Positions 3,630 through 52,435 are shown, counted from the first letter of the stretch. The stretch: 64,000 nucleotides of DNA from Thermoanaerobaculaceae bacterium (GCA_963785165.1 CAWAUI010000007.1:1032732-1096731), one strand, 5' to 3'. Made by a program: numbers and translations. Notes: generated from the sequence alone by a model not told the origin.

Positions 3630-4063
3630 GTCGTTTCCTTTGCCTTGAACAGAAAAGAAGCGGTCAGCGCGGCCAGGCCCGTCAGCAGAAAGCCGGCCGC
3701 GAGAAAGTACACGGTACGGGGCGACGTGGCCGCGGGATTGTAGAGGGCCGGAAACACCGCCCGGAATCCCAGGTCCAGGATCTCGTGGTGCCGGGACTCC
3801 AGCCATGCGAACACCGCCAAGCCACCTGCCAGGACGCCGGCCAGGAGCGCCACGAGGCGGGGGCGCCGCAGGCCCGCGGAGAGGCCCCGGTGGAGCGCCA
3901 CCACCCAGACCGTACCCGCCACCAGGGCCCAGAGGGCGAAGGCGGTGCGGTCCGCGACGGCGCTGTAGAGGAAACCCAGGAGCAGGATGGGCAGGAGCCC
4001 GCCGAGGAGGCCGCCATACCAGGTGAAGACCAGGGAACGATTGCCGGAGGGGGCCTCGCTCAC
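3626..4063 (-). CDS. Hypothetical integral membrane protein (3-4 TM)
   Basis: A GTG start overlaps the AtuA stop (GTGA). The sequence is hydrophobic: LVFTWYGGLLGGLLPILLLGFLY...FLAAGFLLTGLAALTASFLF. Confidence 0.45.
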   Translation of the reverse strand: MSEAPSGNRSLVFTWYGGLLGGLLPILLLGFLYSAVADRTAFALWALVAGTVWVVALHRGLSAGLRRPRLVALLAGVLAGGLAVFAWLESRHHEILDLGFRAVFPALYNPAATSPRTVYFLAAGFLLTGLAALTASFLFKAKETT

Positions 4064-5428
4064 ACCTCCTCCACGGTGACCTCGATGCGGCTCTCGACCT
4101 CCTCGCGGGCCAGCAGGGCCGGCCAATAGGCCACGATCTCCTGCGGCTTGGGCCGGCCGCCGGCGAAGCCCGTCACCCCCGGGGGGCCGGCGGTCACGAG
4201 CGGCGCGATCTCCTTGCCGAACCGCTCCACCTTGGCCGAGTCCGCGTGCTTCACGCCGAGCCGCAGCACGACCTCGGGGAGATCGTCCGGCGTGGCGAAG
4301 ATCCCCGGCAGGCAGGCGCCGGTGCCCAGCAGCTCCGTCTCCCGGTCCTCGGGAGCGAAGACGACCCCGGCGCGTTCCAGCCGCTTCCACACCACCTCGG
4401 CGGCCAGCGTGGCCTTCTCCACCGCCCGCGGCCCCGAGAGGGTGATCTGCCCCGAGGCCTTGTAGCCGGCGAGGTAGGAGCCCGAAACCTTGAGAAACGG
4501 CGTGTTGGGCCGCCCCTCGATGCCGGAGACCTCCACCCGGTCCTTGCCGTCCTGGCGCAGGTGGATGGTGGTGAAGTCGGCCGTCACGTCCGGCGTGATG
4601 TAGCTCGCGGGATCGCCCATCTCGTAGACCAGCTGCTCGGAGACGGTGTCGACCGTCACCATTCCGCCCGTCCCCTCGTGCTTGGTGACCACGAAGGTGC
4701 CGTCTTCCCGGGCCTCGACCACGGGATAGCCGACGTTCCAGAGGTCCGGCACTTCCCAGAAGCGGCTGAAGTTGCCGCCCGTGCACTGGGCGCCGCATTC
4801 GATGATGTGGCCGGCGATGGTGCCCGCGGCCAGGCGGTTCCAGTCTCCCTCGCTCCAGCCGAACTCGTGCATCATCGGCGCGAGCGCCAGGGCCGTGTCC
4901 GTCACCCGGCCGCAGAGCACGATGTGGGCGCCCTGCGCGAGGGCGTCCACCACCGGCCGGGCGCCCAGGTAGGCGTTGGCGCTCATCACCTTGTCGACGT
5001 GCGGCCCCAGGGGCTCGCCCGTGTCCATGTTCTTCATCGCGTGCCCGGCGGCGATCAGGTCCTTGAGGCGCGGCAGGAGGTCATCCCCCTCGACCACGCC
5101 CACCCGGAGCCCCGTGACCCCGAGCTCGCTTCGCCACCTCGAAGATGCGGTTGCGGCACGCCCGCGGGTTCAGGCCGCCCGCGTTGGTGAGCACCCGAAC
5201 GTTGCGCTCCACCAGCTCGGGAAGCACCCGGCGGATGAAGCCGATGAAGTCCGTGGCATAGCCGAGCTTCGGGTTCTTCAGCTTCTGCCGCATCATGATC
5301 GACAGCGTCACCTCGGCGAGGTAATCCATGCCGATGTAGTCGATGGGACCGCCGCGCAGCAGCTCCACGGGCGCGTCCACGTTGTCCCCCCAGAACCCCT
5401 GGCCATTGCCGATCCGGATCGTCTTCAT
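4060..5428 (-). CDS. AtuA-like acyclic terpene utilization protein (DUF1446), frameshifted near 5130
   Basis: N-terminus MKTIRIGNGQGFWGDNVDAPVELL...; it continues in a second frame as MGVVEGDDLLPRLKDLIAAGH...GTIAGHIIECGAQCTGGNF. The shift lies at a G-run. Confidence 0.65.
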
Positions 5429-5533
5429 AGAGCCCGGAAGAGTAGCATGGGTGTAAGCTGGAGGCTGTCAGGACAAAGGGCGGCCAGGAAATTGCAGGCC
5501 GTTTCTGGCGGAGAGTGAAAGGAGAATTGTCCC

Positions 5534-13227: not shown

Positions 13228-14139
13228 ATGAGCACCATGCCATCCACAGAATCGGTCGAGGGTACCTCTTTGCCTGTCTCCGTTCGCCTGGCCGATTTCT
13301 GGGAGATGACCAAGCCGGGGATCACCCTCATGGTGGTGCTCACGGCCGGTCTGGGCTTCCTGCTGGCCGAGCAGGGGAGCTTCCACTTCCTGCTCCTCGT
13401 CTACACGCTCCTCGGTACAGGCCTCATTTCGGCCGGCGGGTCGGTGCTCAACCACGTCCTCGAGCGCGACACCGACGCCCTCATGACCCGCACCGCGAAC
13501 CGGCCTCTGCCCACCGGGCGGATGAACCCGGACGTGGCGCTGTCGTTCGGCGTCGTGCTGGCCGTCCTGGGCCTGCTCGACCTCGCCCTGGGGGTGAACC
13601 TGCTCACGGCCCTGCTCGGTGCCGTGGCCCTTGCCGGCTACGTCTTCGTCTACACGCCGCTCAAGCGGATCAGCTCGCTCGCCACCGTCATCGGCGCCGT
13701 GCCGGGGGCCATTCCGCCCATGATGGGGTGGAGCGCCGTGCGCAACGAGCTCGACCCCGCGGCCTGGGTGCTCTTCGGCATCCTGTTCTTCTGGCAGCTC
13801 CCGCACTTCCTGGCCATCGCCTGGCTCTGCCGGGAGGACTATGCCCGCGGCGGCTTCCCCATGCTGCCGGTGCTCGATCCGGAAGGAACCCGCACGGGCC
13901 GCCAGGCCATTCTCTACGGCGCGGCCCTGGTGCCGGTGTCGCTCCTGCCGTCGCTCCTCGGGCTCATGGGCACCATCTACTTCGTGGGTGCCCTGGCGTT
14001 CGGCCTCGCCTACCTCGGCTTCTCCTTCGCCTTTGCCCAGGCCCGCTCGAATCCCGGAGCACGCCGGCTCATGCTGGCCTCGCTCCTCTACTTTCCGGCC
14101 TTGCTGCTCATCATGCTGCTGGACCGCGTGGCCTCCTGA
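13228..14139 (+). CDS. ctaB: Protoheme IX farnesyltransferase (heme O synthase)
   Basis: UbiA-family motifs: NHVLERDTDALMTRTANRPLP, YVFVYTPLKR; about 9 TM. Confidence 0.85.
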   Translation: MSTMPSTESVEGTSLPVSVRLADFWEMTKPGITLMVVLTAGLGFLLAEQGSFHFLLLVYTLLGTGLISAGGSVLNHVLERDTDALMTRTANRPLPTGRMNPDVALSFGVVLAVLGLLDLALGVNLLTALLGAVALAGYVFVYTPLKRISSLATVIGAVPGAIPPMMGWSAVRNELDPAAWVLFGILFFWQLPHFLAIAWLCREDYARGGFPMLPVLDPEGTRTGRQAILYGAALVPVSLLPSLLGLMGTIYFVGALAFGLAYLGFSFAFAQARSNPGARRLMLASLLYFPALLLIMLLDRVAS

Positions 14140-14147
14140 TTTCCTCC

Positions 14148-15144
14148 ATGACATCCCCTGGGGGATCACCGCCTCCCGCCGTCCAGGCGCAGGGTCTTCA
14201 TTATTCCTACAAGGGAAAACCCTATAAAGGCAAGCGCAAGGGCGGACCGTCCCGGCCGGCGCTCGCGGGGATCGATTTCTCGGTCTCGGCAGGCGAGATC
14301 TTCGGCTTCCTCGGACCCAACGGCGGCGGCAAGACCACCCTCTTCCGCATCCTCGCCACGCTCGCCCGGCCCGACGCGGGCACCGTCAGCATTCTCGGCG
14401 CCGACCTGGGAACCCAGGCCGTCGAGGTGCGCCGCCGGCTCGGCGTCGTCTTCCAGAACCCGAGCCTCGACCTCCAGCTCACCGTGCGCGAGAACCTCGT
14501 CCACCAGGGCCAGCTCTACGGCCTATCCGGCATGGAGCTCGCGGCCCGGACCGCCGCCGCCCTCAACCGCTTCGGCCTCGGCGACCGCGCGGGGCAGAAG
14601 ACCCTGGAGCTTTCGGGGGGATTGAGACGGCGGGTCGAGATCGCCAAGGCCCTCCTGCACGCCCCTCGCCTGCTGCTTCTGGACGAGCCGAGCACCGGCC
14701 TCGATCCGGGAGCCCGGCGGGATCTCTGGGAGACTCTGGAAAGCCTGCGCATCGAGGGAGTGACGGTGCTCCTCACCACCCACTTCATGGAAGAGGGGGA
14801 CCGCTGCGGCCGGCTCGTGCTCCTCGACCGCGGCGCCATCGTGGCCGAGGGCTCGCCCGCGGCCTTGAAGGAAGAGATCGGCGGCGACGTGATTACGGTC
14901 ACCGGTCCGGAGCCGGAAGCCCTGGCGCGCGACCTCGCCGCCCGCTTCCCGGACCTCGGCCCCACGTTGAGCGACGGCACCGTCCGCATCCTCCGCGAGC
15001 GCGGCCACGAGCTGGTGCGCCCGCCTGGCCGAGGCCCTGCCGGGGCGGATCGACTCCGTCACCGTGGCCCGGCCCAGCCTGGAAGACGTCTTCCTGCGCC
15101 GCACCGGCCACCATCTCTTCAGCGAAGAAGAGGCCGCCGCTTGA
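14148..15144 (+). CDS. ABC transporter ATP-binding protein (ABC-2/NosF-like), frameshifted near 15018
   Basis: Walker A GPNGGGKTT, signature LSGGLRRRVEIAKAL, Walker B LLLLDEPSTGLD. The C-terminus ...ELVARLAEALPGRIDSVTVARPSLEDVFLRRTGHHLFSEEEAAA is only recovered in the +1 frame. Confidence 0.8.
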
Positions 15145-15146
15145 CG

Positions 15147-15923
15147 ATGAAGATAATGCTCGCCGTCTACACCCTCTGGCGCCGCGAGCTGACGCGTTTC
15201 TTCCGCCAGCCCAGCCGCATCGCCGGCGCCGTGGCCACGCCGCTCATCTTCTGGCTCCTTCTCGGCAGCGGCCTCTCCGGCTCCTTCCGGCTCCCCGGCG
15301 GGCCGGAGAGCGTGGACTACCTGGAGTATTTCTTCCCCGGAACCATCGTCCTCGTGCTGCTTTTCGCCGCGATCTTCTCCAACATCTCCGTCATCGAAGA
15401 CCGCCACGAAGGCTTCCTCCAGGGCGTGCTGGTGGCGCCGGTGGGGCGCGCCACCCTGGTGGCCGGCAAGGTGCTGGGCGGCTCCACCCTCGCCTGGCTC
15501 CAGGCGATCGTCTTCCTGGCCCTGGCCCCCGCGGCGGGCATCCACCTGACGTTCTGGAACCTCCTGGCGGCGGCGGGCGTGCTGGCCGTGCTGGCCGTGG
15601 CCCTGTCGGCCCTGGGCTTCGCCTTCGCCTGGAAGCTCGACTCCGTCCAGGGTTTCCACGCCATCATGAACATCGTGCTCATGCCGATGTGGATGCTCTC
15701 CGGCGCCTTCTTCCCCGCCAGCGGCGCCCCCGGCTGGCTCGCGGCGCTCATGCGGTTCAATCCCCTCACCTACGGGATCGCGGCGCTGCGCCACGCCTTC
15801 TACGGCGCCGCTCTCGAGGAGGGGATGCCGGGGGTGGCGCTGTCTCTGGCCGTCACCCTCGCCGTGGGCCTCGCCTCCTTCGCGTCCTGCCTGCTCGCCA
15901 CCCGGGGCGCGAGGGTCGAGTGA
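15147..15923 (+). CDS. ABC-2 family transporter permease
   Basis: Six-TM ABC-2 architecture (FRQPSRIAGAVATPLIFWLLLG...). It starts 3 nt after the ATPase stop. Confidence 0.75.
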   Translation: MKIMLAVYTLWRRELTRFFRQPSRIAGAVATPLIFWLLLGSGLSGSFRLPGGPESVDYLEYFFPGTIVLVLLFAAIFSNISVIEDRHEGFLQGVLVAPVGRATLVAGKVLGGSTLAWLQAIVFLALAPAAGIHLTFWNLLAAAGVLAVLAVALSALGFAFAWKLDSVQGFHAIMNIVLMPMWMLSGAFFPASGAPGWLAALMRFNPLTYGIAALRHAFYGAALEEGMPGVALSLAVTLAVGLASFASCLLATRGARVE

Positions 15924-16519
15924 ACGTCCGCCGGGGCCTCCTCTGGGGGATCCTGATCGCGGTGCTCCTCCTGGTGGCCGCCGCGGCCCTGGTCCAGCGC
16001 CTCCACCGTCCCGATCCCCCGCCCATCCTCGGCCAGGTGCCGGACTTCACCCTCACCAACCGCGACGGCCGCACCGTCCACCGCGCCGACTTGGCCGGCG
16101 CCCCCTGGATCGCCGACTTCATCTTCACCCGCTGCCCCGCCTCCTGCCCCATCATGACCACCCGCATGGCCCGCCTGAACCGCGAGCTGCCGCCGGACCT
16201 CGGCCTCCGTTTCGTCTCCTTCACCGTCGATCCGGACCACGACACCCCCCAGGTTCTGCAGAAATACGCCGCCTCCTTCCAGGCTCCCGAGCGCTGGCTC
16301 TTCCTCACGGGCGGCAAGGACACGCTCTACCGGCTCTCCCAGGAAGGCTTCAAGCTGGGAGTCGCCCTCAATACCGAGCCGGGCACCGTCGAGCCGATCC
16401 TCCACAGCACGCGGTTCGTGCTGGTGGATGGGGAGGGACGGATTCGGGGGTATTACGATGGGTTTGATGAGGAGTCGGTGGGGCGGTTGGAGGGTGATCT
16501 CAGGGCTTTGGTGGAGTAG
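15920..16519 (+). CDS. SCO1/SenC family copper chaperone (thioredoxin fold)
   Basis: N-terminal TM anchor and the CxxxC motif FIFTRCPASCP; conserved His in LHSTRFVLVD. The GTG start overlaps the permease stop. Confidence 0.8.
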   Translation: MNVRRGLLWGILIAVLLLVAAAALVQRLHRPDPPPILGQVPDFTLTNRDGRTVHRADLAGAPWIADFIFTRCPASCPIMTTRMARLNRELPPDLGLRFVSFTVDPDHDTPQVLQKYAASFQAPERWLFLTGGKDTLYRLSQEGFKLGVALNTEPGTVEPILHSTRFVLVDGEGRIRGYYDGFDEESVGRLEGDLRALVE

Positions 16520-17951
16520 AGCCGGCCGCGGCTTTTCTTCTCGCCTTCTCTGCCTTCAGCTCCTCGATGGCCGCACGGATTTCATCCTCATAAGGTATTG
16601 GTTCTACTTTCGAGGGATCGAAGGGCGGCAACTCTGGCTCAGGTATGCCAAGCCGTGCGAGGATCCTTTTGGAGTTCTCCAAATCCCACCAGAAGATGTG
16701 CGGCGGGCCGTCTGCCCAAGCTTTCTTGTAGGCGAGCATGGCGTGTTCCTTCGCTTTATTACAGTCGTCGAGCTGTAGATAAACCTCAGCGGCTTCCCAG
16801 TTACCCTCTAAGCCAGCCTCTTCTACCAAACTTTGAGCCTCATAGAGGCGGCCCTGCATTGCCAAGATTCGTGCAATAAAGACTTTGCCGTAAGCGTCTG
16901 GGACTCCAGTTTTCCTGAGAATCTCTATCTCGCGGTCGGCGGCTTCAACGGCTTCGTGGAGTATTCCTTTGCGTAAGGCTATCTCAGCTTGAAGGTGGAG
17001 AATGGTACTCTGGCCCGAAAGGTTTTTCCCTCGGATGGTCATCTTTAGGGCCTCTTCCAGTTCTGTAGCTTGTAGCTTATTCCGCCGAAACTTCAACCAG
17101 CAGAGAATGGCTTCGACACTGCCGATGCGGTATTGATGGCGTTCAGGGGTTGGGCGTGCAGAGAAAGCGGTGCAAGCAGTCTGCGCGTCTTTATCGCGGC
17201 CCTCGTCGAAATATAATTTTGCAAGCTTATACAAAATCCCTGTGGCAACATTCTTTGCTCCTGCTGCTAGGGCAAGGTTATAAGCCAGCTCAGAGCCATT
17301 TATGGCGGTTGCCAATTTACCTGAGATGGAGGCTCCAGTTGCATAATTTACTATATTGACCGATAGGTCTCTCCAGTTTTCCGATTCGAGGTTGAGCCTG
17401 ATGGCCAGCTGCAGTCTTGCTTGTGACTCTTTGTGGCGGCCGAGTTCCTTGAGTGCTACCCCCAGGCTATTAATTATGAGGCCCTGGTCTTTAACGGAAC
17501 TTAAGGCCGGCGGGCTCTCTGAGCCGTTGGTAAACATTGGGGTAAGCAGTTCAACTACTGTAGGATAAGATCCTATAGAGAAAAGTAATGAATCGTTGAG
17601 GCCGCCAAGGTAAAGGCTGGCTGCTTGAGCAAGCCTTCCGGCCCCCATAAGAGCTCGAAAAATTTGAAGAGTGTTCCTGACGTGAGAGACATCAGTGGCA
17701 TCATTAAAATCTTCTGGCGGCAGTGCCTCAAAATGATCGCGGATCCGATCATAAGTTTGTATCCTATCATCTTTTTCGATCTGATCAAAGGCGTATCCAC
17801 GTACCACGGGATGCAAGTCGTAGGTATTGCTGTGACGGTTCCACTGCAAGAGTCCCCGGCTCTCTAGCTCACTCAAGGCTGTGTCGAAATCCGCAATCGT
17901 TGCTTTGTATTTTAATGATCCCAAGTACGTATCTGATGCGTTCTCGGGCAT
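16500..17951 (-). CDS. STAND NTPase, C-terminal module: winged-helix remnant plus a TPR-repeat sensor. It is in frame with 18018..19448 across a single TGA at 18018-18020.
   Basis: It begins ...ALSELESRGLLQWNRH (NB-ARC WH-like), followed by multiple TPR-like repeats. The 22 codons between the TGA and the first Met are sense. The 3' end overlaps the sco1 3' end by 20 bp. Confidence 0.65.
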   Translation of the reverse strand: MPENASDTYLGSLKYKATIADFDTALSELESRGLLQWNRHSNTYDLHPVVRGYAFDQIEKDDRIQTYDRIRDHFEALPPEDFNDATDVSHVRNTLQIFRALMGAGRLAQAASLYLGGLNDSLLFSIGSYPTVVELLTPMFTNGSESPPALSSVKDQGLIINSLGVALKELGRHKESQARLQLAIRLNLESENWRDLSVNIVNYATGASISGKLATAINGSELAYNLALAAGAKNVATGILYKLAKLYFDEGRDKDAQTACTAFSARPTPERHQYRIGSVEAILCWLKFRRNKLQATELEEALKMTIRGKNLSGQSTILHLQAEIALRKGILHEAVEAADREIEILRKTGVPDAYGKVFIARILAMQGRLYEAQSLVEEAGLEGNWEAAEVYLQLDDCNKAKEHAMLAYKKAWADGPPHIFWWDLENSKRILARLGIPEPELPPFDPSKVEPIPYEDEIRAAIEELKAEKARRKAAAGSTPPKP

Positions 17952-18017
17952 AGAGGGGAGGTATGGATTGAGAATCGCTAGAGTGGCGTAGTCCGCCGCA
18001 TCGCTCAGAACGGCAAC

Positions 18018-19448
18018 TCAACTCAATAGTTGCTTTTTCTGCAGATCGAGTCCATCGAAGGCGTAAGCTAGAATGTGGGTACGGCGTTGCTTGAGATCTA
18101 GCTCGCTTAAACGAAGACTACCGCCTTCTTGGGGATCCGCTAGCCACCGATCGAAATCTCCCGGGGCGGGTCGGTAATCTAAGATACGGCCAGCGAGGAC
18201 TCCAATGAGCAGACTATGATTATCGAACTGCCGTAAGAACCGCCGGATGGCGGCCGAGTTACCATGGGTTCCCAGGCTTTTGAAGAGGCTCTCGCCGTCG
18301 GCTGGATCAAGACCTCGCAGCTTCAGGTGACGGACACCTGGAAGCGGCTGGTGGGCTCGGTTTTCCAGTGATGAAGGCATTAGCCGGGTCGTAATCAGGA
18401 ATTTGGATGGCGAGCACCCGACGAGTTGCCGAAGGAGATCCTCGGTACGAGGATTTGTACAGGAGCGATGGTCGGTTTTCACCTGATCGTCCTGTAGCTT
18501 CGAAGGGTCGAGTTGATGATAAGCGGTGAGCAGCCGCTCGAAACCGTCTAATACGAGGAGGTAGGGACGCCGCCGCAACTCAGTAAGGAGCCTCTGGATC
18601 TGCTCATCCTGAGGAACGTTTCGAAGATCCTCCGGGTCTATGGGAGTAACGTAGGCCAGTGCCTCCCGTACGAAGGAGACTGTGGAGGCGCCGCCCTCGT
18701 AGAAACTCCACCAGAGGGCCCCGGCGAGAATAGGTATCGCCTTCGATGCCCGATCTCGTGCCCACTCCCAGGTCAATGCGCTCTTGCCAACGCCGCCAAT
18801 CGCCTCTACAACCAGCATCGTTTCCGACGAGCGTGCCCAGGTATCAAGATCGTTCAGCTCCTTCCGACGGCCGATGAATTGGGTTGTCTGGATGTAGGGC
18901 GGAACGCTGTGCATTTCCGGTGGGGTAGGGAGGGACCGACGAACTGGGGTAGGCTTGGCAGTGGGAGACGTGGCCTCGGTCTGGGCAAGATCGTGGCCTA
19001 GGAGGAGAACATCTTCCTTAAACGTCCCGACATCCTGGAACTTTTTCCAGGTGTGCTTCTTGCCGATCTTCTCCTTGAAGAGATCAAGCCGTTCGGAGTT
19101 TTTTCCCTTGTCCATTTTGGAGGCGGGCCAAGGGTGATCGGGATCGATGACGAAGAGGTGGGTCGGCAGGTTCCGCTCGATCGCCCAGTTGTACTCCATT
19201 TCGGTGATTGACACCTCGGAGCCGTCCGGGATGTAACCATAGCGGTGGGCGTAGACGCCGAGAAAAAGGTCGGCTTCCTCTACCTTGGCCTTGCAGAAAG
19301 CGATGGCGTCTCGGGGATCTGGCGGGAAGTCTTCCATGTAAACGGGGATCAGCCCGACCCGGCGGCAGGCGTGAATGGCGGCCTCTCGGTACTCCACAAG
19401 GTCGAGGAAGGTGCTGCTGAGGAAGACCTTCTTAGCTAGAGTGGGCAT
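18018..19448 (-). CDS. STAND NTPase, N-terminal module: DUF4062-like domain plus NB-ARC/AP-ATPase P-loop domain. It ends at an in-frame TGA and continues in frame with the next feature.
   Basis: About 50% GC versus about 68% in the flanks. The N-terminus KVFLSSTFLDLVEYREAAI...HLFVID matches the DUF4062 pattern. Walker A VVEAIGGVGKSALT, Walker B PYLLVLDGFERL, then a sensor/winged-helix region. Confidence 0.7.
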   Translation of the reverse strand: MPTLAKKVFLSSTFLDLVEYREAAIHACRRVGLIPVYMEDFPPDPRDAIAFCKAKVEEADLFLGVYAHRYGYIPDGSEVSITEMEYNWAIERNLPTHLFVIDPDHPWPASKMDKGKNSERLDLFKEKIGKKHTWKKFQDVGTFKEDVLLLGHDLAQTEATSPTAKPTPVRRSLPTPPEMHSVPPYIQTTQFIGRRKELNDLDTWARSSETMLVVEAIGGVGKSALTWEWARDRASKAIPILAGALWWSFYEGGASTVSFVREALAYVTPIDPEDLRNVPQDEQIQRLLTELRRRPYLLVLDGFERLLTAYHQLDPSKLQDDQVKTDHRSCTNPRTEDLLRQLVGCSPSKFLITTRLMPSSLENRAHQPLPGVRHLKLRGLDPADGESLFKSLGTHGNSAAIRRFLRQFDNHSLLIGVLAGRILDYRPAPGDFDRWLADPQEGGSLRLSELDLKQRRTHILAYAFDGLDLQKKQLLS

Positions 19449-19590
19449 AGTGGATGGTCGTTATTATAGGAAGGAACGGGACATTGGCGTCTGAAGGCGT
19501 GATGGAGCGCCCTGTGGAAGACCTTGGGATGTTCCTCGGCGGTCTTTGAGTGCTCCGGCGGCAGCGGCGGGCGGTTCAAGACGCGTTTTA

Positions 19591-20037
19591 GTCAGGCTCT
19601 GTGCTGCCCGAGGATCAGGAGATCCAGCCCTCGAAACTGCCGGAACGCCGCATCCGTTGTCACCATTCGGTATCGGCCTGCCAGAGCGAAGGCGGCGAGG
19701 TAGGCATCCAGAGTTTGGGGGACGCCGTCTCGCGGACGGCAAGTTGTTTCCACAGGGAATCCAACTCAGCCGGTTCGTCGGCCTGGAAGACGATCCGGTC
19801 GTCAGCAAGCAAGGCTTCCCAAACTGCCCACGCCTCGCGATTCGTCAGCGGCGGATTCCCATAAAGGCCCAGGACTGTGGAATTGGTGAGTAGCCGGAGA
19901 AAGGACTGTTGAGTCGCTCGGCACAGTACTACCGATGCCGGATCCTCCACGGTTTCCAGCCACTCACGTGCAACGGTGTGGTGGCTGTGTCCGGAAAGAG
20001 CCAAGGCCAGCCAGACGTTGCTATCGCAGAAGATCAC
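19591..20037 (-). CDS. vapC: Type II toxin VapC (PIN domain), frameshifted at a G5 run near 19745
   Basis: MIFCDSNVWLALAL...; the conserved C-terminus LDAYLAAFALAGRYRMVTTDAAFRQFRGLDLLILG only appears in the alternate frame. Confidence 0.75.
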
Positions 20038-20293
20038 GATGCCACTTGGCTTCCTCTTCGAGCAACACGTCGGCCACCCGCTCCGGGGTCAACTCCTCGT
20101 CGGCGCGGGCTTCGTGGGCGCACTCGACGAGCGGCAACTTGACCCGCCTGCGAATCGGCCCCTGCACACGGGACTGCGCCAAGCCGCGTCTCAATAGGAA
20201 GGCCATCATGTCCTTGAGCTTCCTGTTCTCCTCGACGGCTCGGATTTTTACCGCGCGCATGACGTCATCGGGGAGGTCCAGCGTCGTCTTCAT
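20021..20293 (-). CDS. vapB: VapB-like antitoxin (ribbon-helix-helix)
   Basis: MKTTLDLPDDVMRAVKIRAVEENRKLKDMMAFLLRRGL; it overlaps the vapC start by 17 bp. Confidence 0.6.
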   Translation of the reverse strand: MKTTLDLPDDVMRAVKIRAVEENRKLKDMMAFLLRRGLAQSRVQGPIRRRVKLPLVECAHEARADEELTPERVADVLLEEEAKWHRDLLR

Positions 20294-22422: not shown

Positions 22423-23115
22423 ATGAAGATCCGCCTCCTCGCCTTCGCCAGTGCCGGGGACGCCCTGGGTGCCACCGAAATGGAAATCGAGATTCCCCAG
22501 GGCAGCCGGGTCATTGATCTCCGAGCACGGCTCGAACGCCTCTATCCCGCCCTCATCCCCCTCTGGCCGCGGATGGCGGTCGCCATCGACGGCCGGGTCG
22601 CCTCTATCGTCGACGAGATCAAGGAGGGGATGGAGGTAGCCCTGCTCCCCCCAGTCTCGGGAGGGACCGAGGAACCGCTGCGAGGGGATTTGGTGGATGG
22701 GCCGATCGACACCGGCCAAGCCGTCGCCGCCGTCTCCGGTCCGGGCCGCGGCGCCGTCGTGATCTTTCTCGGGACCGTCCGGGATCACCACGCCGGCCGT
22801 CCCGTCGCTAAGCTCACCTACAGCGCCTACCGGCCCATGGCCCTGGAGGGACTCCGCCGGATCGCGACGGACCTCGAAGCGGCTCATCACGATCTCCGAG
22901 CCGCGATCGTCCACCGTCTTGGGGAAGTCCCCGTGGGCGAGCCGAGCGTGGTGATCGCCATCGGCTCCCCCCACCGGGCCGCCGCCTACGAGGCAAGCCG
23001 CACCGCCCTGGAGCGCCTCAAGGCGGAGATTCCGATCTGGAAGCGGGAGCACTACGGGGATGGTGAGGCGGCTTGGCGGGAGGAGGAGCCGCTGGTAACG
23101 GCTGAGAAGACTTAG
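22423..23115 (+). CDS. moaDE: MoaD-MoaE fusion (molybdopterin synthase sulfur-carrier plus catalytic subunit)
   Basis: The N-terminal ~85 aa is ThiS/MoaD-like. The linker ends in LLPPVSGG, a MoaD-type C-terminal GG. The rest is MoaE (VVIFLGTVRDHHAGRPV...). Confidence 0.75.
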   Translation: MKIRLLAFASAGDALGATEMEIEIPQGSRVIDLRARLERLYPALIPLWPRMAVAIDGRVASIVDEIKEGMEVALLPPVSGGTEEPLRGDLVDGPIDTGQAVAAVSGPGRGAVVIFLGTVRDHHAGRPVAKLTYSAYRPMALEGLRRIATDLEAAHHDLRAAIVHRLGEVPVGEPSVVIAIGSPHRAAAYEASRTALERLKAEIPIWKREHYGDGEAAWREEEPLVTAEKT

Positions 23116-23118
23116 CGC

Positions 23119-23488
23119 CTACCTCTCAGGCAGTGGCCGGACGCGTATCCTGTCATTTCCGACCACAGCAAAGAAGCCAGACCATTCAATACCGCTTTCC
23201 ATCGCTGCCAAGGCTCGCACCTTGTCGGTCTCCGGGTCCAACCCTGAAAGGCGGAAAAGAATGACGCCGCTTGATGCAGGCAGGCCAAAGCGATAGGCAA
23301 GCTCGCCGAAGTCCTTGTCAAAGGTGACAACGAGACGAGATTCGTCTTGCGCTCGGGCAAGAACATCCCGATCTCCCGCTCCACGCATGGATTCCTTGAC
23401 GGAAGTCACGTCATGGCCCCGCTGCCGGAGCTGCCCGAATTAGAGGACCCGGAAAGTTTTCGTCTGCGAGGATGCGCAGGGGAACCAT
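23119..23488 (-). CDS. DUF5615 (PIN-like, Mut7-C-like) protein, frameshifted near 23430; putative toxin-like partner of DUF433
   Basis: N-terminus MVPLRILADENFPGPLIRA.., then in a shifted frame LRQRGHDVTSVKESMRGAGDRDVLARAQDESRLVVTFDKDFGEL. Confidence 0.5.
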
Positions 23489-23725
23489 TCAGCCAGGGAT
23501 GGCGTAGACCCGCTCCGATCGGAGCGTCTCACTTGCGTAGGCGAGACAGGCCTGAATGTCCTCCGCCGTGATGTGGTCGTACTGGTCAAGGATCTGCTCT
23601 TTGGTATAGCCACGCGCCAGCAAATCAATGACCAGCTCCACCGCGATCCGAGTTCCCTTGATCACGGGCTTACCCACTAGAACGGCAGGGTTAACCGCAA
23701 TGCGCTCATGCCAGTCCATCGTCAA
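23489..23725 (-). CDS. DUF433 domain protein (putative antitoxin-like partner)
   Basis: IAVNPAVLVGKPVIKGTRIAVELVIDLLARGYTKEQILDQYDHITAEDIQACLAYA. It lies directly upstream of, and adjacent to, the DUF5615 gene. Confidence 0.65.
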   Translation of the reverse strand: MTMDWHERIAVNPAVLVGKPVIKGTRIAVELVIDLLARGYTKEQILDQYDHITAEDIQACLAYASETLRSERVYAIPG

Positions 23726-23731
23726 GCTCTC

Positions 23732-24295
23732 CTACTCAAAAAGGCCCGACAGGGAGATCTCTAAACCCGGCAGCAGAGGAGTCTTCAAGGCATCTCCCCG
23801 CTCCGTGGACAGCTCAGCCGCACGGCGGTAGCGGCCATCCCACAGGCGGTAAACCTCAACCGTCTCCAACTCCGGATCCACCATCCAGTACTCTCGGACA
23901 CCGAACTTCTCGTAGAGATGCCTCTTGGTGATGGCGTCGGTGCGGCGGGTGGTCGGGGAGAGAACTTCGACCACCAGGTCCGGGGCACCCTGAAGATTGG
24001 CGCCGCCCGCGGCAAGGCTCATCCGGTCCTTGGTGAGGAACAACACGTCAGGCTGCACCACGTCATGCTCGGAGAGCACCACGTCGATGGGGGCCGTCCA
24101 GACCCGGCCGAGCTTCCGGGCTCGCACAAAGCCGATCAGCTCGAAGGTTAGGTTCCCTACCGCCGTCTGATGCTTCAGGTTCGGAGCCGCCGTCACATAG
24201 TGCTCCCCGTCGATGAGCTCATGCCGCTTCCCATCCTCCGGAAAATAGAGGTAATCCTCAAACGTAAGCTTCAGGCTGCGGGCATCAGCTTCCAT
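23732..24295 (-). CDS. Uma2-family endonuclease (DUF820, putative restriction endonuclease-like)
   Basis: Characteristic FEDYLYFPEDGKRHELIDGE..., VVQPDVLFL, PDLVVEVLSPTTRRTD. Confidence 0.8.
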   Translation of the reverse strand: MEADARSLKLTFEDYLYFPEDGKRHELIDGEHYVTAAPNLKHQTAVGNLTFELIGFVRARKLGRVWTAPIDVVLSEHDVVQPDVLFLTKDRMSLAAGGANLQGAPDLVVEVLSPTTRRTDAITKRHLYEKFGVREYWMVDPELETVEVYRLWDGRYRRAAELSTERGDALKTPLLPGLEISLSGLFE

Positions 24296-24321
24296 CGCAA
24301 ATCATCCTAACATGGGGTCTC

Positions 24322-26086: not shown

Positions 26087-27248
26087 TCAGTACCGCGGCA
26101 CCGACGGGTCCACCTCGACGCTCCAGGCCTCGATCCCACCGGCCAGGTTGATCGCCTTCGAGAACCCTTTCTGGCGTAGATAACCGACGACCTGGGCCGA
26201 GCGTGCGCCGTGGTGGCAGTGGGCCACGATGATGTCTTCGGGATTGAGCTCGCCCAGGCGGGCCTGGATTTCTCCCATGGGGATCAGCTTCGCGCCGTCG
26301 ATGCGGCAGATCTCCCATTCCGGAGGGTTGCGGACGTCAATGAGCGTCACCTGCCGGCCTTCCTCTCGCCACTGCCTGAGCTCGGCGACCGTCATCTCGA
26401 AGTCGTGCTCCACCTTGTCCTCCTCGGGGTCGATTCCGCACAGTTGCTGGTAATCCATCAAGCCCGTCTGCACCGGGTTCTCCGAGCAGATGGGGCAGTC
26501 GGGGCTCTTCCGGAGCTTCAGCTCGCGGAACTTCAGCTTGAGGGCGTCGAACAGGACCAGCCGGCCGATCAGCGGGTCGCCCGCGCCCACGATCAGCTTG
26601 ATGACCTCGTTGGCCTGGAGCGAGCCGATGATCCCCGGCAGCACCCCCAGCACGCCGCCCTCGGCGCAGGAGGGGACCAGCCCGGGCGGCGGCGGCTCCG
26701 GGAACAGGCAGCGGTAGCAGGGTCCGCGCGCGCCCCAGAAGACCGAGACCTGCCCCTCGAAGCGGAAGATCGAACCGTAGACGTTGGGCTTCCCCAGCAG
26801 CACGCAGGCGTCGTTCACGAGGTAGCGGGTCGGGAAGTTGTCCGTGCCGTCCACGACGACGTCGTAGTCCTTGAACAGCTCCAGGGCGTTCGAGGAGTCG
26901 AGGCGCGTCTCGATGGGGACGGACGTCGATGTAGGGATTGACGTCCCGCAGGCGCTCGGCGGCGGCCTGGGTCTTGGGCCGGCCCACCGAGGAGTGGCCG
27001 AAGAGGATCTGCCGATGCAGATTGCTCTCGTCCACCACGTCGAAATCCACGATCCCCAGCGTGCCGACTCCGGCGGCGGCGAGGTAGAGCCCCAGCGGAG
27101 AGCCCAGGCCGCCGGCGCCGATCATCAGCACCTTGGCCGCCTTGAGCTTCTTCTGCCCCACGGTGCCCACCTCGGGCAGGATCAGGTGGCGGCTGTACTG
27201 GCGGATCTCGCCGGGGGACAGCTCCGGCAGCTCGCTCAGATCCCTCAT
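26087..27248 (-). CDS. moeB: Molybdopterin-synthase adenylyltransferase MoeB/ThiF with a C-terminal rhodanese domain, frameshifted near 26930
   Basis: N-terminus EIRQYSRHLILPEVGTVGQKKLKAAKVLMIGAGGLGSPLG; after a 1-nt shift it continues VPIETRLDSSNALELFKDYDVVVDGTDNFPTRYLVNDAC...; the rhodanese active-site Cys is in IIVAHCHHGARS. Confidence 0.85.
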
Positions 27249-27664
27249 GCGCGGACCTCCTGCTCCACCGCCTCCTCCGCGGAGAAGCGCCAGCTCCGGG
27301 TTTCCACCGCCTGGCCGCCCACCACGGAAACGATGAGACAGGCGTAGCCGGGCCAGGCGTTCTCGCGGTCGAGCCGGCTCGGCCGGGCGGGGTGATCCGG
27401 GTGCGAATGGTAGTAGCCGACCACGTCGAGCCCCGCCGCGCGGGCCTCCTTGTGGACCGCCAGCACCGTCTCGGGAGGAACCGTGAACCGGTCGCTCCGT
27501 CCTCCGGTGTTGGCCGCCGGCAGAATCCGCTCGACCCGGGTGGCGCCACCCTCCGCGCTGCCGATCAGGAAGCCGCAGCATTCCTCCGGATAGCAGGCTT
27601 CGCCATGACTCTGGATCGACTCCAGGTCACGGGGCGAAAGGAGGAGGGGGTGTGGAACCGGCAT
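27245..27664 (-). CDS. Mov34/MPN/JAMM-family metalloprotease (Mec+/CysO-processing type)
   Basis: JAMM motif VVGYYHSHPDHPARPS and an upstream Glu (EECCGFLIG). An ATGA overlaps the moeB start. Confidence 0.8.
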   Translation of the reverse strand: MPVPHPLLLSPRDLESIQSHGEACYPEECCGFLIGSAEGGATRVERILPAANTGGRSDRFTVPPETVLAVHKEARAAGLDVVGYYHSHPDHPARPSRLDRENAWPGYACLIVSVVGGQAVETRSWRFSAEEAVEQEVRA

Positions 27665-27740
27665 CGCCGATCAAGCTAGCACAACCCCATGTATCCTTGG
27701 CCCCTGGAGCGCATCCAAGTTGGGGAGGACGAGAACGATC

Positions 27741-48975: not shown

Positions 48976-50544
48976 ATGGCCATGGAAATCCGTATCGCGG
49001 GGCCGGAGACGGCCTCGCGCGACCGAGTCCTCACACCGGAAGCGCTGGCCTTCGTGGCCGATCTCCAGGAACGCCTCGGGGTGGCCCGGGACGACCTGCT
49101 GTGCCGGCGGGCCCAGCGCCAGGAAGACTTCGCCCGGGGGATCGAGCCGGGCTTTTCCGAGCACACGCAAGCCATCCGCCAGTCGGATTGGACCGTGGCT
49201 CCGGCGCCCCCGGACCTCCAGGACCGCCGGGTCGAGATCACCGGCCCCGTGGAGCGCAAGATGATGATCAACGCCCTCAACTCGGGGGCCAGCGTCTTCA
49301 TGGCCGACTTCGAGGACTCGCTCTCCCCCACCTGGGAGAACGTCGTCGAGGGGCAGGCGAACCTCATGGACGCCGTCCGGCGCCAGATCGACTACCGGAG
49401 CCCCGAGGGGAAGGAGTACCGGCTCGCGGACCGCACCGCCACCCTGCTCGTCCGCCCGCGCGGCTGGCACCTGCCGGAGCGGCATGCCACGATCGACGGC
49501 GTCCCCGTGTCCGCCAGCTTGTTCGACTTCGGCCTCTACGTCTTCCACAACGCCGCGGAGCTGCTGAAGCGCGGCAGCGGCCCCTACTTCTACTTGCCCA
49601 AGCTCGAGAGCCACCTCGAGGCCCAGCTCTGGAACCGCGCCTTCGAGGAGGCCCAGGACTGGCTCGGGCTCCCGCGCGGCACCCTCCGCGCGACCGTGCT
49701 CATCGAGACCCTCACCGCAGCCTTCGAGATGGACGAGATCCTCTGGGAGCTGCGCGACCACGCCGCCGGCTTGAACGCCGGCCGGTGGGACTACATCTTC
49801 AGCATCCTCCGCAAGTTCCCCGAGAGCGCCGCCGTGCTGCCGGACCGCTTCCAGATCACCATGGCCGTGCCCTTCATGCGCGCCTATACCGACCTCCTGG
49901 TGAGCACCTGCCACCGGCGCGGGGCCCATGCCATTGGCGGCATGGCCGCGTTCATCCCCAGCCGGCGCGACGAGGAGGTCAACCGGCGAGCCCTGGAGAA
50001 GGTGCGGGAGGACAAGGAGCGCGAGGCCCGCCAAGGCTTCGACGGCACCTGGGTGGCCCACCCCGACCTCGTGCCGGTCGCGAAGGAGATCTTCGACCGC
50101 GTCCTCGGCGACCGGCCGAACCAGAAGGATGTGCTGCGAGACGACGTCGACGTATCCGCCGCCGACCTGCTCGATTTCCAGGTCCCGGGGGGCCGCATCA
50201 CCGAGGAGGGAGTGCGCTCCAACATCTCGATCGCCCTCCAATACCTCGATTCCTGGCTCCAGGGCCAGGGCGCCGTCGGCATCCGCAACCTCATGGAAGA
50301 CGCCGCCACCGCCGAAATCTCCCGTTCCCAGCTCTGGCAATGGGTGCGCCACGGCGCCCGTATGGACGACGGCCGCCCCATCACGGCGGAGCTTTACCGG
50401 GATCTCAGGGATCAGGAGCTGGCGGCTCTGGGAGGATCCGGTCAGGGACGCCTGGGCGACGCCGCACGGATCCTCGACGACTTGGTGCTCAGCAGTGGCT
50501 TCGTGCCGTTCCTGACGGTCGAGGCCTACGAGCTTCTGGACTAG
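48976..50544 (+). CDS. aceB: Malate synthase A
   Basis: [27 protein letters not shown]; the catalytic region is [13 protein letters not shown]; about 522 aa. Confidence 0.95.
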
Positions 50545-51443
50545 GCAACCGCCAGAAAAAACCCCTCGGCCACCCAGAACCGGAACCAAGCGCGCAGCTC
50601 CGCCGCCAGCGACTCGTCATCGAGATCGCTGGCGGCCGCCGCGTCGTTGATCGCCTCTCCGACGGTGCCCCCGGCAAGAAGCGCGCTCAGCAGGGCGTGT
50701 TGCGGCGCCGTCAGCGGATACCTCCGCACGATGAACTCGCGGCGGGTCAGGGCCACGTGCTCCGCGCCGGGCTCGGGCAGCGGCACCTCTTCACCCTCCG
50801 CCGCCCGCCTGGCCGCCGTGTAGTAGGCGTTGATGGGGAAGCGGAAGGTGAAGACGTGCAGGCACGGCACAGGGACCAGCCGCGCCTCCGCGAAACGCTC
50901 GGGAGGGAAGGCCTGAAGCGCCTCCGGGGTCAGGAGGGTCTTGCCCTCGACGCCGGGGCCGTCGAACACCTTGGCGACCGCCCACTCGAAGGTGGCGAGG
51001 TCGATGAGGAAGTCGGGCCAGCTGAGCTCTTCGGTGTCCCCGGGATCCTCGGGCCGGGTCTCTTCCAGGTACCGTGCGAAGCTCGCCCCCAGGTGGTCCA
51101 GGGTGTAGCTGCTCGGCGGGTATTGCTGGAGGTACTCGAAGGCGAAGCCGTCGAAGACCTCGTCGCCCAGCGCCTGTTTCAGCATGGGAAAGTTGGCCCC
51201 CAGGCACTCCAGCAGCCGCGAGTAGTAGGCGTTGGCGTAGATCGACATCCGCTCGGTCGCCGTGAGGTTGCGCGAACGGCGCACCACCGCTTCCAGCTCG
51301 CCACGGTCCAGCCGGATGAGCGCCTGGGCCTCGTCCGAGACCGCGCCCCCCTCGACTCCGCCGGGATGGGCGACCACGGCGTGGAACCAGCGCTGCACCA
51401 CCTCCAGAGACCTGGGTCCACCGCTCACCGGGTTCTCGCTCAC
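50541..51443 (-). CDS. DUF2063 protein, the partner subunit (BufC/MbnC-like) of the DUF692 enzyme
   Basis: [14 protein letters not shown]..., [16 protein letters not shown]. The GTG start overlaps the DUF692 stop (GTGA). The 3' end overlaps the aceB stop by 4 nt. Confidence 0.8.
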
Positions 51444-52372
51444 TCCACCTCCGGCCGGATGTGGTGGAGCGGATGGGGCACGTGCGAGCCGCCCCCTACG
51501 AGCACGGGGGCCTCCTCGACCGCCTCCTCATCGAGCTTCGGCAGGTGCTCGCCCATGAACTTCTTGGCCTTGAGCACCTCCTCGTGCACCACGGGGAAGG
51601 GCGGGATGTTGGCGTCCCACTCCAGCAGCGTCGAGACACCGCCCGTGAGCTGGTGGGCCGTCCGGTAAAGCTCCCAGACCGGGTCGGTCACGTGGTTGTC
51701 GTGCGTGTCGATCAGGTGGGTCGTGTAATCCGTGTGCCCCGCGAGATGGAACTGGACGATCCGCTCGTGCGGCAGGGAGCGGATGAACCGGTCCGGGTCC
51801 ATGTCGTGGTTGAAGCTCGACACGTAGACGTTGTTGACGTCGAGCAACAGGCCGCAGTCGGCCTCCTCGGCCATGCGGGTCACGAACTCCCACTCGTCCA
51901 TGGTCGAGTCCTGGAAGGTGATGTAGGAGCTCGGGTTCTCCAGCACGAACGGCCGCTCCAGCACGTCCTGCACGATCTTGACCCGCTCGACCACGTGGCG
52001 CAGCGTCTCCTCCGTGAACGGCACGGGGAGCAGGTCGTGCGTGTTGCGGCCCATCACCCCGGTCCAGCACAGGTGGTCGGAGATCCACTTCGCGTCGATC
52101 TCCTTGGCCAGCCGCTTCAGCTTCTTCAGGTACTCGATGTTCACGGGATCGGTCGAGCCAATGGACAGCGAGACCCCGTGCATGACGACCGGATAGCGTT
52201 CGGCGATCTGCTGGAGCACGTAGCGCGGACGGCCCTGCGAATCGATGAAGTTCTCGCTGATGATCTCGAACCAGTCCACCTCCGGCTGGTTCTGAAGGAC
52301 GTAGTCGAAATGGACGGACCGCAATCCCACTCCCAGTCCGAGGTTGTCGTGTCCGAGGCGGGGCGGCTTCAT
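51440..52372 (-). CDS. DUF692 / MNIO (multinuclear non-heme iron oxidative enzyme, MbnB/BufB-like) TIM-barrel protein
   Basis: GGAAGGAG RBS, then [22 protein letters not shown]; FEIISENF; [11 protein letters not shown]; [21 protein letters not shown] (metal ligands). Confidence 0.85.
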
Positions 52373-52435
52373 CGGGGGCTCCTTCCGAATAGGGGCGGCC
52401 CCGGGGGCCGCCCCTACGGTCATTTCGTCAGCAGA

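Follow-up and report, generated by a model that had tools for sequence, protein, structure and literature searches.

A DUF4062-STAND-TPR, NLR-like gene interrupted by a single in-frame TGA beside SCO1 in a Thermoanaerobaculaceae genome

DUF4062 is a TIR-like NADase domain with a catalytic glutamate, and it depletes NAD+ in antiphage systems (10.64898/2026.09.04.749371, 10.64898/2026.05.01.722283, 10.64898/2026.06.25.731849). In PsAvs2, DUF4062 is joined to a STAND NTPase and TPR repeats. PsAvs2 is toxic when co-expressed with the large subunit of the phage terminase, a sign that terminase is the activator; upon infection, NAD+ falls, ADP-ribose rises and growth is arrested, and the E108Q substitution abolishes both NAD+ depletion and arrest (10.64898/2026.09.04.749371). 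KpSwz is activated by the phage portal, and its catalytic glutamate is E97 (10.64898/2026.05.01.722283). The Evangelion proteins employ the same DUF4062 core, with an E-Y motif (10.64898/2026.06.25.731849). Here we describe a gene of this kind in a stretch of 64,000 nucleotides from a Thermoanaerobaculaceae bacterium (GCA_963785165.1 CAWAUI010000007.1:1032732-1096731; hereafter the window). Its reading frame is interrupted by one TGA. With moderate confidence, we read the TGA and the gene together as a defence gene that has long been resident and passed on vertically, that encodes NIR (that is, DUF4062), STAND and TPR domains, and that has become a null allele here only very recently, with CGA to TGA as the simplest change.

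One gene with effector, NTPase and sensor

An ORF (open reading frame) scan of the window placed two ORFs in the same frame of the minus strand. The first (19448..18018, 476 amino acids) ends in the TGA at 18018-18020, and the second is at 17951..16500 (483 amino acids). The 22 codons between the TGA and the ATG of the second ORF are all sense codons, and reading through both ORFs gives a protein of 982 amino acids whose frame has no other stop. An earlier description of this DNA, which we call the sequence-only reading, had noticed the two ORFs, the TGA and the 22 sense codons, and our translation check agrees with it. It had also described low-GC DNA within high-GC DNA, a 20-bp overlap with the 3' end of the convergent SCO1/SenC gene, and an adjoining vapBC pair. 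The overlap is there (16500-16519), and so is the difference in base composition: in sliding windows, GC is 0.49-0.60 across 16500-19500 as compared to 0.67-0.73 in the flanks; the interrupted gene has a GC content of 0.542 and the remainder of the window 0.672; and GC at third codon positions is 0.52-0.65 in this gene and 0.81-0.95 in neighbouring genes. As for vapBC, the PIN toxin gene does lie upstream (19660-20037, minus strand; PIN match of 27.8 bits), and its partner is a weaker candidate (a 90-amino-acid putative RHH antitoxin at 20021-20293, minus strand; RHH_5 at 18 bits, E 0.0023).

We found 1289 relatives in a search of 5.8 billion proteins, and the best of these are single proteins of 965-1070 amino acids with 98-100% coverage. 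A profile search of 1.84 billion cluster representatives gave 4242 matches at E <= 1e-30, mostly environmental; nearly all of the best 150 of these are single proteins of about 950-1100 amino acids. Furthermore, intact single-ORF orthologues exist in related Acidobacteriota, where the sequence-only reading had suggested looking for them. All three are convergent with SCO1, at the same position as in the window: P0006 (974 amino acids) in a metagenome-assembled genome (MAG) of the Thermoanaerobaculia (loci L002, L003 and L005), P0007 (1021 amino acids) on a JGI contig (L010), and P0001 (1032 amino acids) on a short contig that ends at SCO1 (L013). From these comparisons, the region is one gene interrupted by one TGA, not two genes. 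The TGA breaks the winged-helix domain within its first conserved element, not in a linker, and the first ATG of the second ORF (17949-17951) is also inside this domain.

The N-terminus, which the sequence-only reading had called DUF4062-like, is matched by Pfam's DUF4062 model (PF13271) with 83 bits (E 1.8e-23; the cut-off is 24.7 bits). The match is full-length (amino acids 7-89 span profile positions 1-82 of 82), and the predicted catalytic glutamate is intact. The DUF4062 structure of KpSwz (10wc_A) is matched at E 3.2e-11 by the single sequence and at E 4.2e-22 by the family profile, and the family profile also matches the NIR domain of human TEP1 (11gz_A, E 1.7e-8). Six residues (G71, S80, T82, E83, E85 and A89) show no variation in an alignment of 83 full-length relatives. 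Of these, Glu85 belongs to the motif TEMEY; its counterpart in the KpSwz E97A construct is the substituted alanine (given the offset in residue numbering that we infer), and Glu85-Tyr86 corresponds to the conserved catalytic glutamate, or "E-Y" region, of the DUF4062/NIR family. In a structure search, the domain matched the TIR domain of SARM1 (score 12.3), a nucleoside deoxyribosyltransferase (12.2) and the CMP hydrolase MilB (12.0); it has the flavodoxin fold of TIR and nucleoside deoxyribosyltransferase-like proteins. We predict that this domain is an effector that hydrolyzes NAD+.

The next domain is a P-loop NTPase with a Walker A motif (GGVGKS, 18780-18797) and a Walker B motif (LLVLDGFER, 18534-18560), both of which are invariant in the family. 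It is followed by helical and winged-helix domains, which is the layout of a NOD (nucleotide-binding and oligomerisation) module. The sequence-only reading had named the NTPase NB-ARC, and this name stands in part. Pfam's NB-ARC model (PF00931) has no match to the window protein at E <= 0.1, and AAA_16, NACHT and nSTAND1 have only sub-threshold matches; a few homologues have a precomputed match to PF00931, so the relationship to NB-ARC is distant. The two halves of the read-through protein were modelled separately with AlphaFold2, each model covering one half only. The best structural matches of the model for the first ORF (predicted local distance difference test, or pLDDT, of 87) are NB-ARC receptors and MalT: the plant NB-ARC receptor ZAR1 (15.0), a wheat NB-ARC resistosome (14.8) and MalT (14.4), followed by CED-4 (13.6), PH0952 (13.2), APAF-1 (13.0) and SeAvs3 (12.8). 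ORC/Cdc6 AAA+ proteins score almost as high as the NB-ARC receptors, which implies a match to the fold of the STAND/AAA+ region in general. Going by the models, "NB-ARC" applies to this NTPase at the level of the fold only.

The model of the part after the TGA (pLDDT 96; predicted template-modelling score 0.92) has a winged helix and then a long TPR superhelix. For the TPR region, the Pfam matches of the single sequence are sub-threshold, and the assignment of the sequence-only reading is borne out by the comparison of the family profile to the PDB and by the model. (For the NTPase-TPR part, the single sequence had no match in the PDB, and the family profile matches only the DUF4062 and TPR parts of the protein.) The modelled sensor fold is MalT/RRNPP-like and unlike the sensors of the solved Avs structures, none of which is among the 60 structural matches listed for the sensor. 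No other part of the gene is as low in GC or as divergent as the TPR region, which is 47-51% identical to the eight closest full-length relatives, as compared to 70-82% for the NTPase.

Relatives carry other N-terminal domains on the same NTPase-TPR core, namely TIR_2 (P0049), Metallophos (P0045), DUF4145 (P0047) and EAD1 (P0059). Effector swapping is typical of conflict systems, so it supports a role in conflict. With a C-terminal repeat sensor and an N-terminal effector that is swapped among relatives, the protein has the makeup of a STAND/NLR-like receptor. Pfam, the family profile and the models together support the proposed architecture of DUF4062, STAND NTPase and TPR, of the NLR-like antiphage class. 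By analogy with PsAvs2 and other Avs proteins, the C-terminal TPR solenoid would bind a ligand that is specific to infection; this binding would free the STAND NTPase for nucleotide exchange and oligomerisation; and oligomerisation would bring the N-terminal TIR-like NIR domains together in clusters. The intact protein would thereby abort infection, as an NAD+ hydrolase that is gated by its ligand and oligomerises. Both the activation by oligomerisation and the defence role of the intact protein are predicted on this analogy.

A conserved locus with an exchanged sensor

Where the contigs of the relatives extend far enough, SCO1 is followed by ABC-2, ABC ATPase and UbiA genes. Between the window and L013, identity is 78% for SCO1, 80% for the effector/NTPase half and about 52% for the TPR region. 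The corresponding values are 63%, 71-76% and 48% between the window and L002, and 92%, 89-93% and 52% between L002 and L010. The N-terminal module has diverged about as much as the flanks have.

The sequence-only reading had proposed horizontal insertion into a hotspot for defence and toxin-antitoxin genes, and our results do not support this. At all 8 of the 8 loci that we examined, the STAND gene has a GC content 3.5-19 points below that of its flanks, and the sensor half is the lower-GC half at all of them but L011. Low GC is common to every relative that we checked, so it is not evidence for a recent insertion. We found no tRNA, integrase or flanking repeats bounding the region (the only repeats are chance-level 14-18-mers). 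The gene is present at the SCO1 junction in L002, L010 and L013, and with no tRNA or repeat borders it does not have the features of a mobile genomic island. The upstream side of the gene does vary between relatives, often with toxin-antitoxin genes: it has vapBC in the window, ATPase_2/DUF234 in L002 and L010, and a vapB-like ORF in L014. The locus illustrates that a low-GC "island" need not imply a recent insertion.

The closest homologue, P0012 (74% identical; L001 6001-9262, ENA ERZ25039606 contig_29299), has a different setting: about 8 kb of low-GC DNA in a genome of 0.72 GC, beside a Y1 (IS200/IS605-type) transposase and with unrelated neighbours. It has a frameshift near amino acid 600, in the winged-helix region.

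L002 and L010 are closely related, with 92-99% identity between their flank proteins, and their comparison (L002 9200-11063) shows a sharp difference over the 3' 1.6-1.8 kb of the STAND gene, which encodes the winged-helix and TPR domains. DNA identity is 0.92-0.95 from the start of the gene to about amino acid 390, 0.81 over the next 200 bp and 0.39-0.68 over the rest of the gene and a short spacer; it is 0.90 again within SCO1. At the third bases of conserved codons, identity is 0.89 for amino acids 1-430 and 0.33-0.36 beyond, with 0.75-0.84 in the flanks. This saturation of synonymous sites rules out diversifying selection alone. The winged-helix and TPR half has been replaced via recombination with a distant allele, and this replacement is the horizontal event at the locus. 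In the comparison of the window with L013, an indel-rich linker (18010-17885) starts about 10 codons past the TGA, so that the interruption falls in the final conserved stretch ahead of the variable module; we regard the position of the TGA at that junction as coincidental.

A broader reading, which we find plausible and hold tentatively, is that the gene is a fixed chromosomal "receptor locus" in this Thermoanaerobaculia-type lineage: the effector-NTPase half would be inherited vertically, and the winged-helix and TPR half would be swapped repeatedly by homologous recombination from a shared pool of lower-GC cassettes, with the junction at about codon 477. Its strongest support is the comparison of L002 and L010. 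If true, the locus would be a bacterial counterpart of a plant NLR allelic series, and the TGA would still be an incidental lesion. We see the locus as a clean natural example of sensor-cassette replacement, which could guide experiments on trigger specificity.

The in-frame TGA: mutation, error or recoding

At the column of the TGA (codon 477), 75 of 120 aligned homologues have arginine, including the 13 top-ranked ones (LLS-R-IAVLSDAADY); glutamine and tryptophan are each found in 20. Relatives encode this arginine with CGG, CGC, AGG or CGA. CGA occurs in one relative, so a single C-to-T change would be enough to give TGA. Decay is not seen elsewhere in the gene: at 140 columns that are conserved at 90% or more, the window protein deviates at 3 (I478V, D537N and L557I, all conservative), and the homologues deviate at 4.3 on average. 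This implies that the lesion is either very recent or not real. We infer that the TGA is real rather than an error, and we predict that the 476-amino-acid effector-NTPase fragment, which lacks the winged helix and the sensor, is non-functional.

We also observed that the TGA lies within a perfect pentamer tandem, TTGAG-TTGAG-TTG (18016-18028, minus strand). With an ancestral CGA, this stretch would have read TTGAGTCGAGTTG. That the TGA perfects a quasi-repeat might be a sign of mutation by templating or slippage, or of a base-calling error that is systematic.

Several results weigh against a recent null allele of a defence gene. First, at least three housekeeping-type genes within the 64-kb window have frameshifts (an ABC ATPase, AtuA and a ThiF-type gene); the assembly therefore looks error-prone, and the TGA may be an error too. 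Second, we did not find the same strain: a comparison of the read-through protein to genome contigs gave only a MAG at 62% identity and distant loci from Nannocystis, a scan of metagenome contigs for the exact DNA around the TGA (allowing any first base in that codon) gave no match, and the protein search gave no homologue above 74% identity overall. Third, activity of the shortened effector-NTPase fragment is conceivable in principle. Fourth, defence, NADase activity and the trigger are, for the NTPase-TPR family, predictions by analogy. PADLOC, which the sequence-only reading had named as a check, gave no match to either half at E <= 0.1 (models from PADLOC-DB 2.0.0, 2023). When we compared the intact homologues to PADLOC at E <= 1, the core had only a chance-level match to a generic TPR model (P0006, E 0.023), and the other matches were to the swapped effector domains, plus one chance-level match to PglX. 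Both NCBIfam and PADLOC are uninformative for the NTPase-TPR core.

The best-surviving alternative to a null allele is that the TGA is an assembly or base-calling error, in which case the organism would have an intact and functional 982-amino-acid NIR-STAND-TPR receptor with the mechanism that we predict. This is a real possibility, somewhat less likely in our view than a null allele. It would account for the lack of decay elsewhere in the gene and for the three other frame lesions within 64 kb, and the closest homologue (P0012), which is from a contig named in the style of a long-read assembler, is likewise frameshifted. But the three other lesions are indels, while this one is a substitution, and the chance that a random substitution error would create a stop in this 2.9-kb gene is <1% (our rough estimate rather than a computation). 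Also, defence genes are often inactivated in nature. The relative weights of mutation and error rest on our own rough base rates rather than on computation. Given the frameshifts in the window, reads are needed before any single-base lesion in this assembly is taken as biology.

A different kind of alternative is that the protein is an ordinary signal-transducing STAND regulator of the AfsR/MalT type, with no role in defence. The TPR region of AfsR is weakly matched by the family profile, and PADLOC has no match to the protein, both of which speak for a regulator. However, the protein has no DNA-binding or other output domain and begins instead with a DUF4062 domain with its catalytic glutamate; relatives replace this domain with TIR, phosphoesterase or EAD1 effectors; and the sensor cassette recombines between near-identical genomes, which we read as typical of an immune receptor. 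We consider a regulator to be highly improbable.

The sequence-only reading had offered three options, namely a nonsense mutation, an error, or a genuine split into two genes. The first two still stand. The third would be a functional two-gene system, in which the 476-amino-acid effector-NTPase cooperates with a separately translated 483-amino-acid protein with the winged helix and sensor, and it is very unlikely indeed. In its favor, the break is near the border where the conserved N-terminal module gives way to the sensor cassette that recombines, and an ORF that starts with ATG begins 22 codons after the TGA. But the stop replaces a conserved arginine within the first element of the winged-helix domain, and the 22 sense codons left between the ORFs encode a conserved sequence (LSDAADYATL...). 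Furthermore, a split at codon 477 is absent from all 120 aligned homologues, the best 150 representatives are nearly all full-length, and the syntenic orthologues are single ORFs; the sole other interrupted copy has a frameshift, at a different place. Finally, the ATG at 17951 is not preceded by a Shine-Dalgarno sequence or other start context.

Least credible of all is programmed recoding of the TGA (as selenocysteine, by reassignment to tryptophan or glycine, or by high-level readthrough) to give the full-length protein, which would fit a frame that is open and conserved across the TGA and the tryptophan found at this column in about one-sixth of homologues, but which we rejected because TGA is the stop codon of 21 of the 31 ORFs in the window, the homologous residue is arginine (also glutamine or tryptophan) and not cysteine or selenocysteine, the window has no tRNA-Sec, other tRNA or Rfam element, and the selenocysteine insertion sequence (SECIS) scan suggested by the sequence-only reading found no stable hairpin in the 71 nucleotides from just before the TGA onward (z = -0.21; 71 of 200 shuffles fold as well or better), which excludes selenocysteine as far as the DNA can tell. 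To our knowledge, genetic codes that reassign TGA are found in low-GC lineages, while the genome of the window has 67% GC.

Neighbouring genes and comparison with known systems

Features of the interrupted gene and its immediate neighbours, in window coordinates
Feature	Position	Strand	Basis
Interrupted NIR(DUF4062)-STAND-winged helix-TPR, NLR-like gene	16500..19448	-	Full-length single-ORF homologues of 965-1070 aa (amino acids), coverage 98-100%
N-terminal DUF4062/NIR TIR-like domain, aa 1-160	18969..19448	-	PF13271 match, aa 7-89 = 19182-19430
Codon of Glu85, motif TEMEY, predicted catalytic Glu ("E-Y region")	19194..19196	-	Alignment
STAND NTPase and helical domain, aa 176-476	18021..18923	-	Walker A, Walker B, structural matches
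In-frame TGA, codon 477, start of winged-helix domain	18018..18020	-	Replaces conserved Arg
Winged-helix domain and variable linker, aa 478-560	17769..18017	-	Model of C-terminal part: helices and beta-hairpin (residues 57-68)
TPR superhelix sensor with conserved C-terminal cap, aa 561-982	16503..17768	-	AlphaFold2 model
SCO1/SenC gene, convergent, conserved locus anchor	15926..16519	+	Pfam PF02630, 99.9 bits
vapBC-like pair upstream of the STAND gene	19660..20293	-	PIN and putative RHH

Just upstream of the STAND gene (19449-19490, minus strand), a TATAAT hexamer lies about 20 nucleotides 5' of the start codon, without a Shine-Dalgarno sequence. Together these suggest a leader that is very short or absent. 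A scan for promoters and terminators gave nothing beyond the shuffled expectation, and the generic promoter scan did not call this hexamer.

The three frameshifted genes are as follows. In the ABC-transporter ATPase gene, the frameshift is at about 15005-15017 (plus strand, within the 731-amino-acid ORF 13728-15923; site 14990-15130): the window has CTGGTGCGCCCGCCTGG, the orthologue reads HELVARLAEAFPGRIDSVTVARP, and this continues in another frame in the window. Through this shift, the ATPase and the ABC-2 permease downstream of it form one in-frame fusion. In the AtuA gene (PF07287; 4063-5467, minus strand), profile positions 1-99 are in ORF 5467..5084 and positions 90-436 are in ORF 5169..4063, which locates the frameshift in the overlap of the ORFs (5084-5169). 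The ThiF/MoeB-rhodanese gene (26090-27260, minus strand) is frameshifted at a CCCC run (CCC to CCCC; GTCCGTCCCCATCGAGACG) within about 26880-27130, and its N-terminal part is in another frame. This lesion is of the homopolymer type, which suggests an assembly error. Near the ThiF gene are a JAB/MPN gene (27248-27670) and a ThiS-MoaE fusion (22423-23115, plus strand).

Elsewhere in the window, a second and smaller dip in GC (23100-24300, 0.58-0.63) contains a DUF5615 gene (23119-23409, minus strand) and a gene for a putative restriction-endonuclease-like protein of the Uma2 family (23732-24295, minus strand). These may be further small accessory genes or genes of the toxin-antitoxin type. At 50544-52435 (minus strand), a gene for an enzyme of the MbnB/TglH/ChrH family (PF05114, 371 bits), which modifies ribosomally synthesized and post-translationally modified peptides, is followed by a gene for a DUF2063 protein; this may be a candidate pair for peptide modification.

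Among known systems, several share part of this architecture. The eukaryotic proteins TEP1, NWD1/2, NPHP3 and TTC41 also have DUF4062 N-terminal to a STAND NTPase and C-terminal repeats, which in TTC41 are TPRs, as described in the DUF4062/NIR papers. In contrast to the window protein, TEP1, NWD1/2 and NPHP3 have a NACHT-type NTPase, several of them have WD40 repeats, and they act in the context of vaults or cilia; the likeness is one of domain order. For the structurally similar ZAR1 (6j5t), APAF-1 (1z6t), CED-4 (2a5y) and MalT (8bob/1hz4), the sequence likeness is below the Pfam threshold for NB-ARC, and these NB-ARC receptors and MalT carry CC, CARD or HTH domains where the window protein has NIR. 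The Swarozyc protein KpSwz (Osinski et al. 2026, 10.64898/2026.05.01.722283; PDB 10wc, 11cq and 11cv) has a homologous NADase domain (E 4.2e-22), with a glutamate in the window protein at the site of E97A. Unlike the window protein, KpSwz lacks a STAND NTPase and TPRs, has a helical stalk, and is activated by assembly on the phage portal.

A 2026 survey in Nature described at least 90 families of antiviral STAND (Avs) proteins with a modular layout of effector, NTPase and sensor, in which TPR sensors often wrap around conserved phage proteins (PMC13581612). The term "DUF4062" is absent from the main text of that survey. PsAvs2 from Pseudomonas chlororaphis (Le Mouellic et al. 2026, 10.64898/2026.09.04.749371) is a single-gene system, like the window gene, and has the same order of a DUF4062 domain with catalytic glutamate, a STAND NTPase and a TPR-type sensor, a likeness that we draw from its description. 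PsAvs2 depletes NAD+ when activated, as we predict for the window protein. Apart from the matches given above, no PADLOC model, and hence no Avs2 model in PADLOC, matches the window protein or its intact homologues, so terminase cannot be assumed to be the trigger.

In summary, the window gene belongs to the DUF4062/NIR and STAND/NLR-like families and does not fall within Pfam's NB-ARC or within any PADLOC model. Its closest known system is PsAvs2, or NIR-Avs more broadly, with the same logic and effector; membership in Avs2 itself is not supported. A NIR/DUF4062 NADase on an NLR-like scaffold has already been characterised in three preprints from 2026, so that one more copy matters little. 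What the window gene adds is a large NTPase-TPR family, missed by the PADLOC models of 2023, among the proteins with this architecture.

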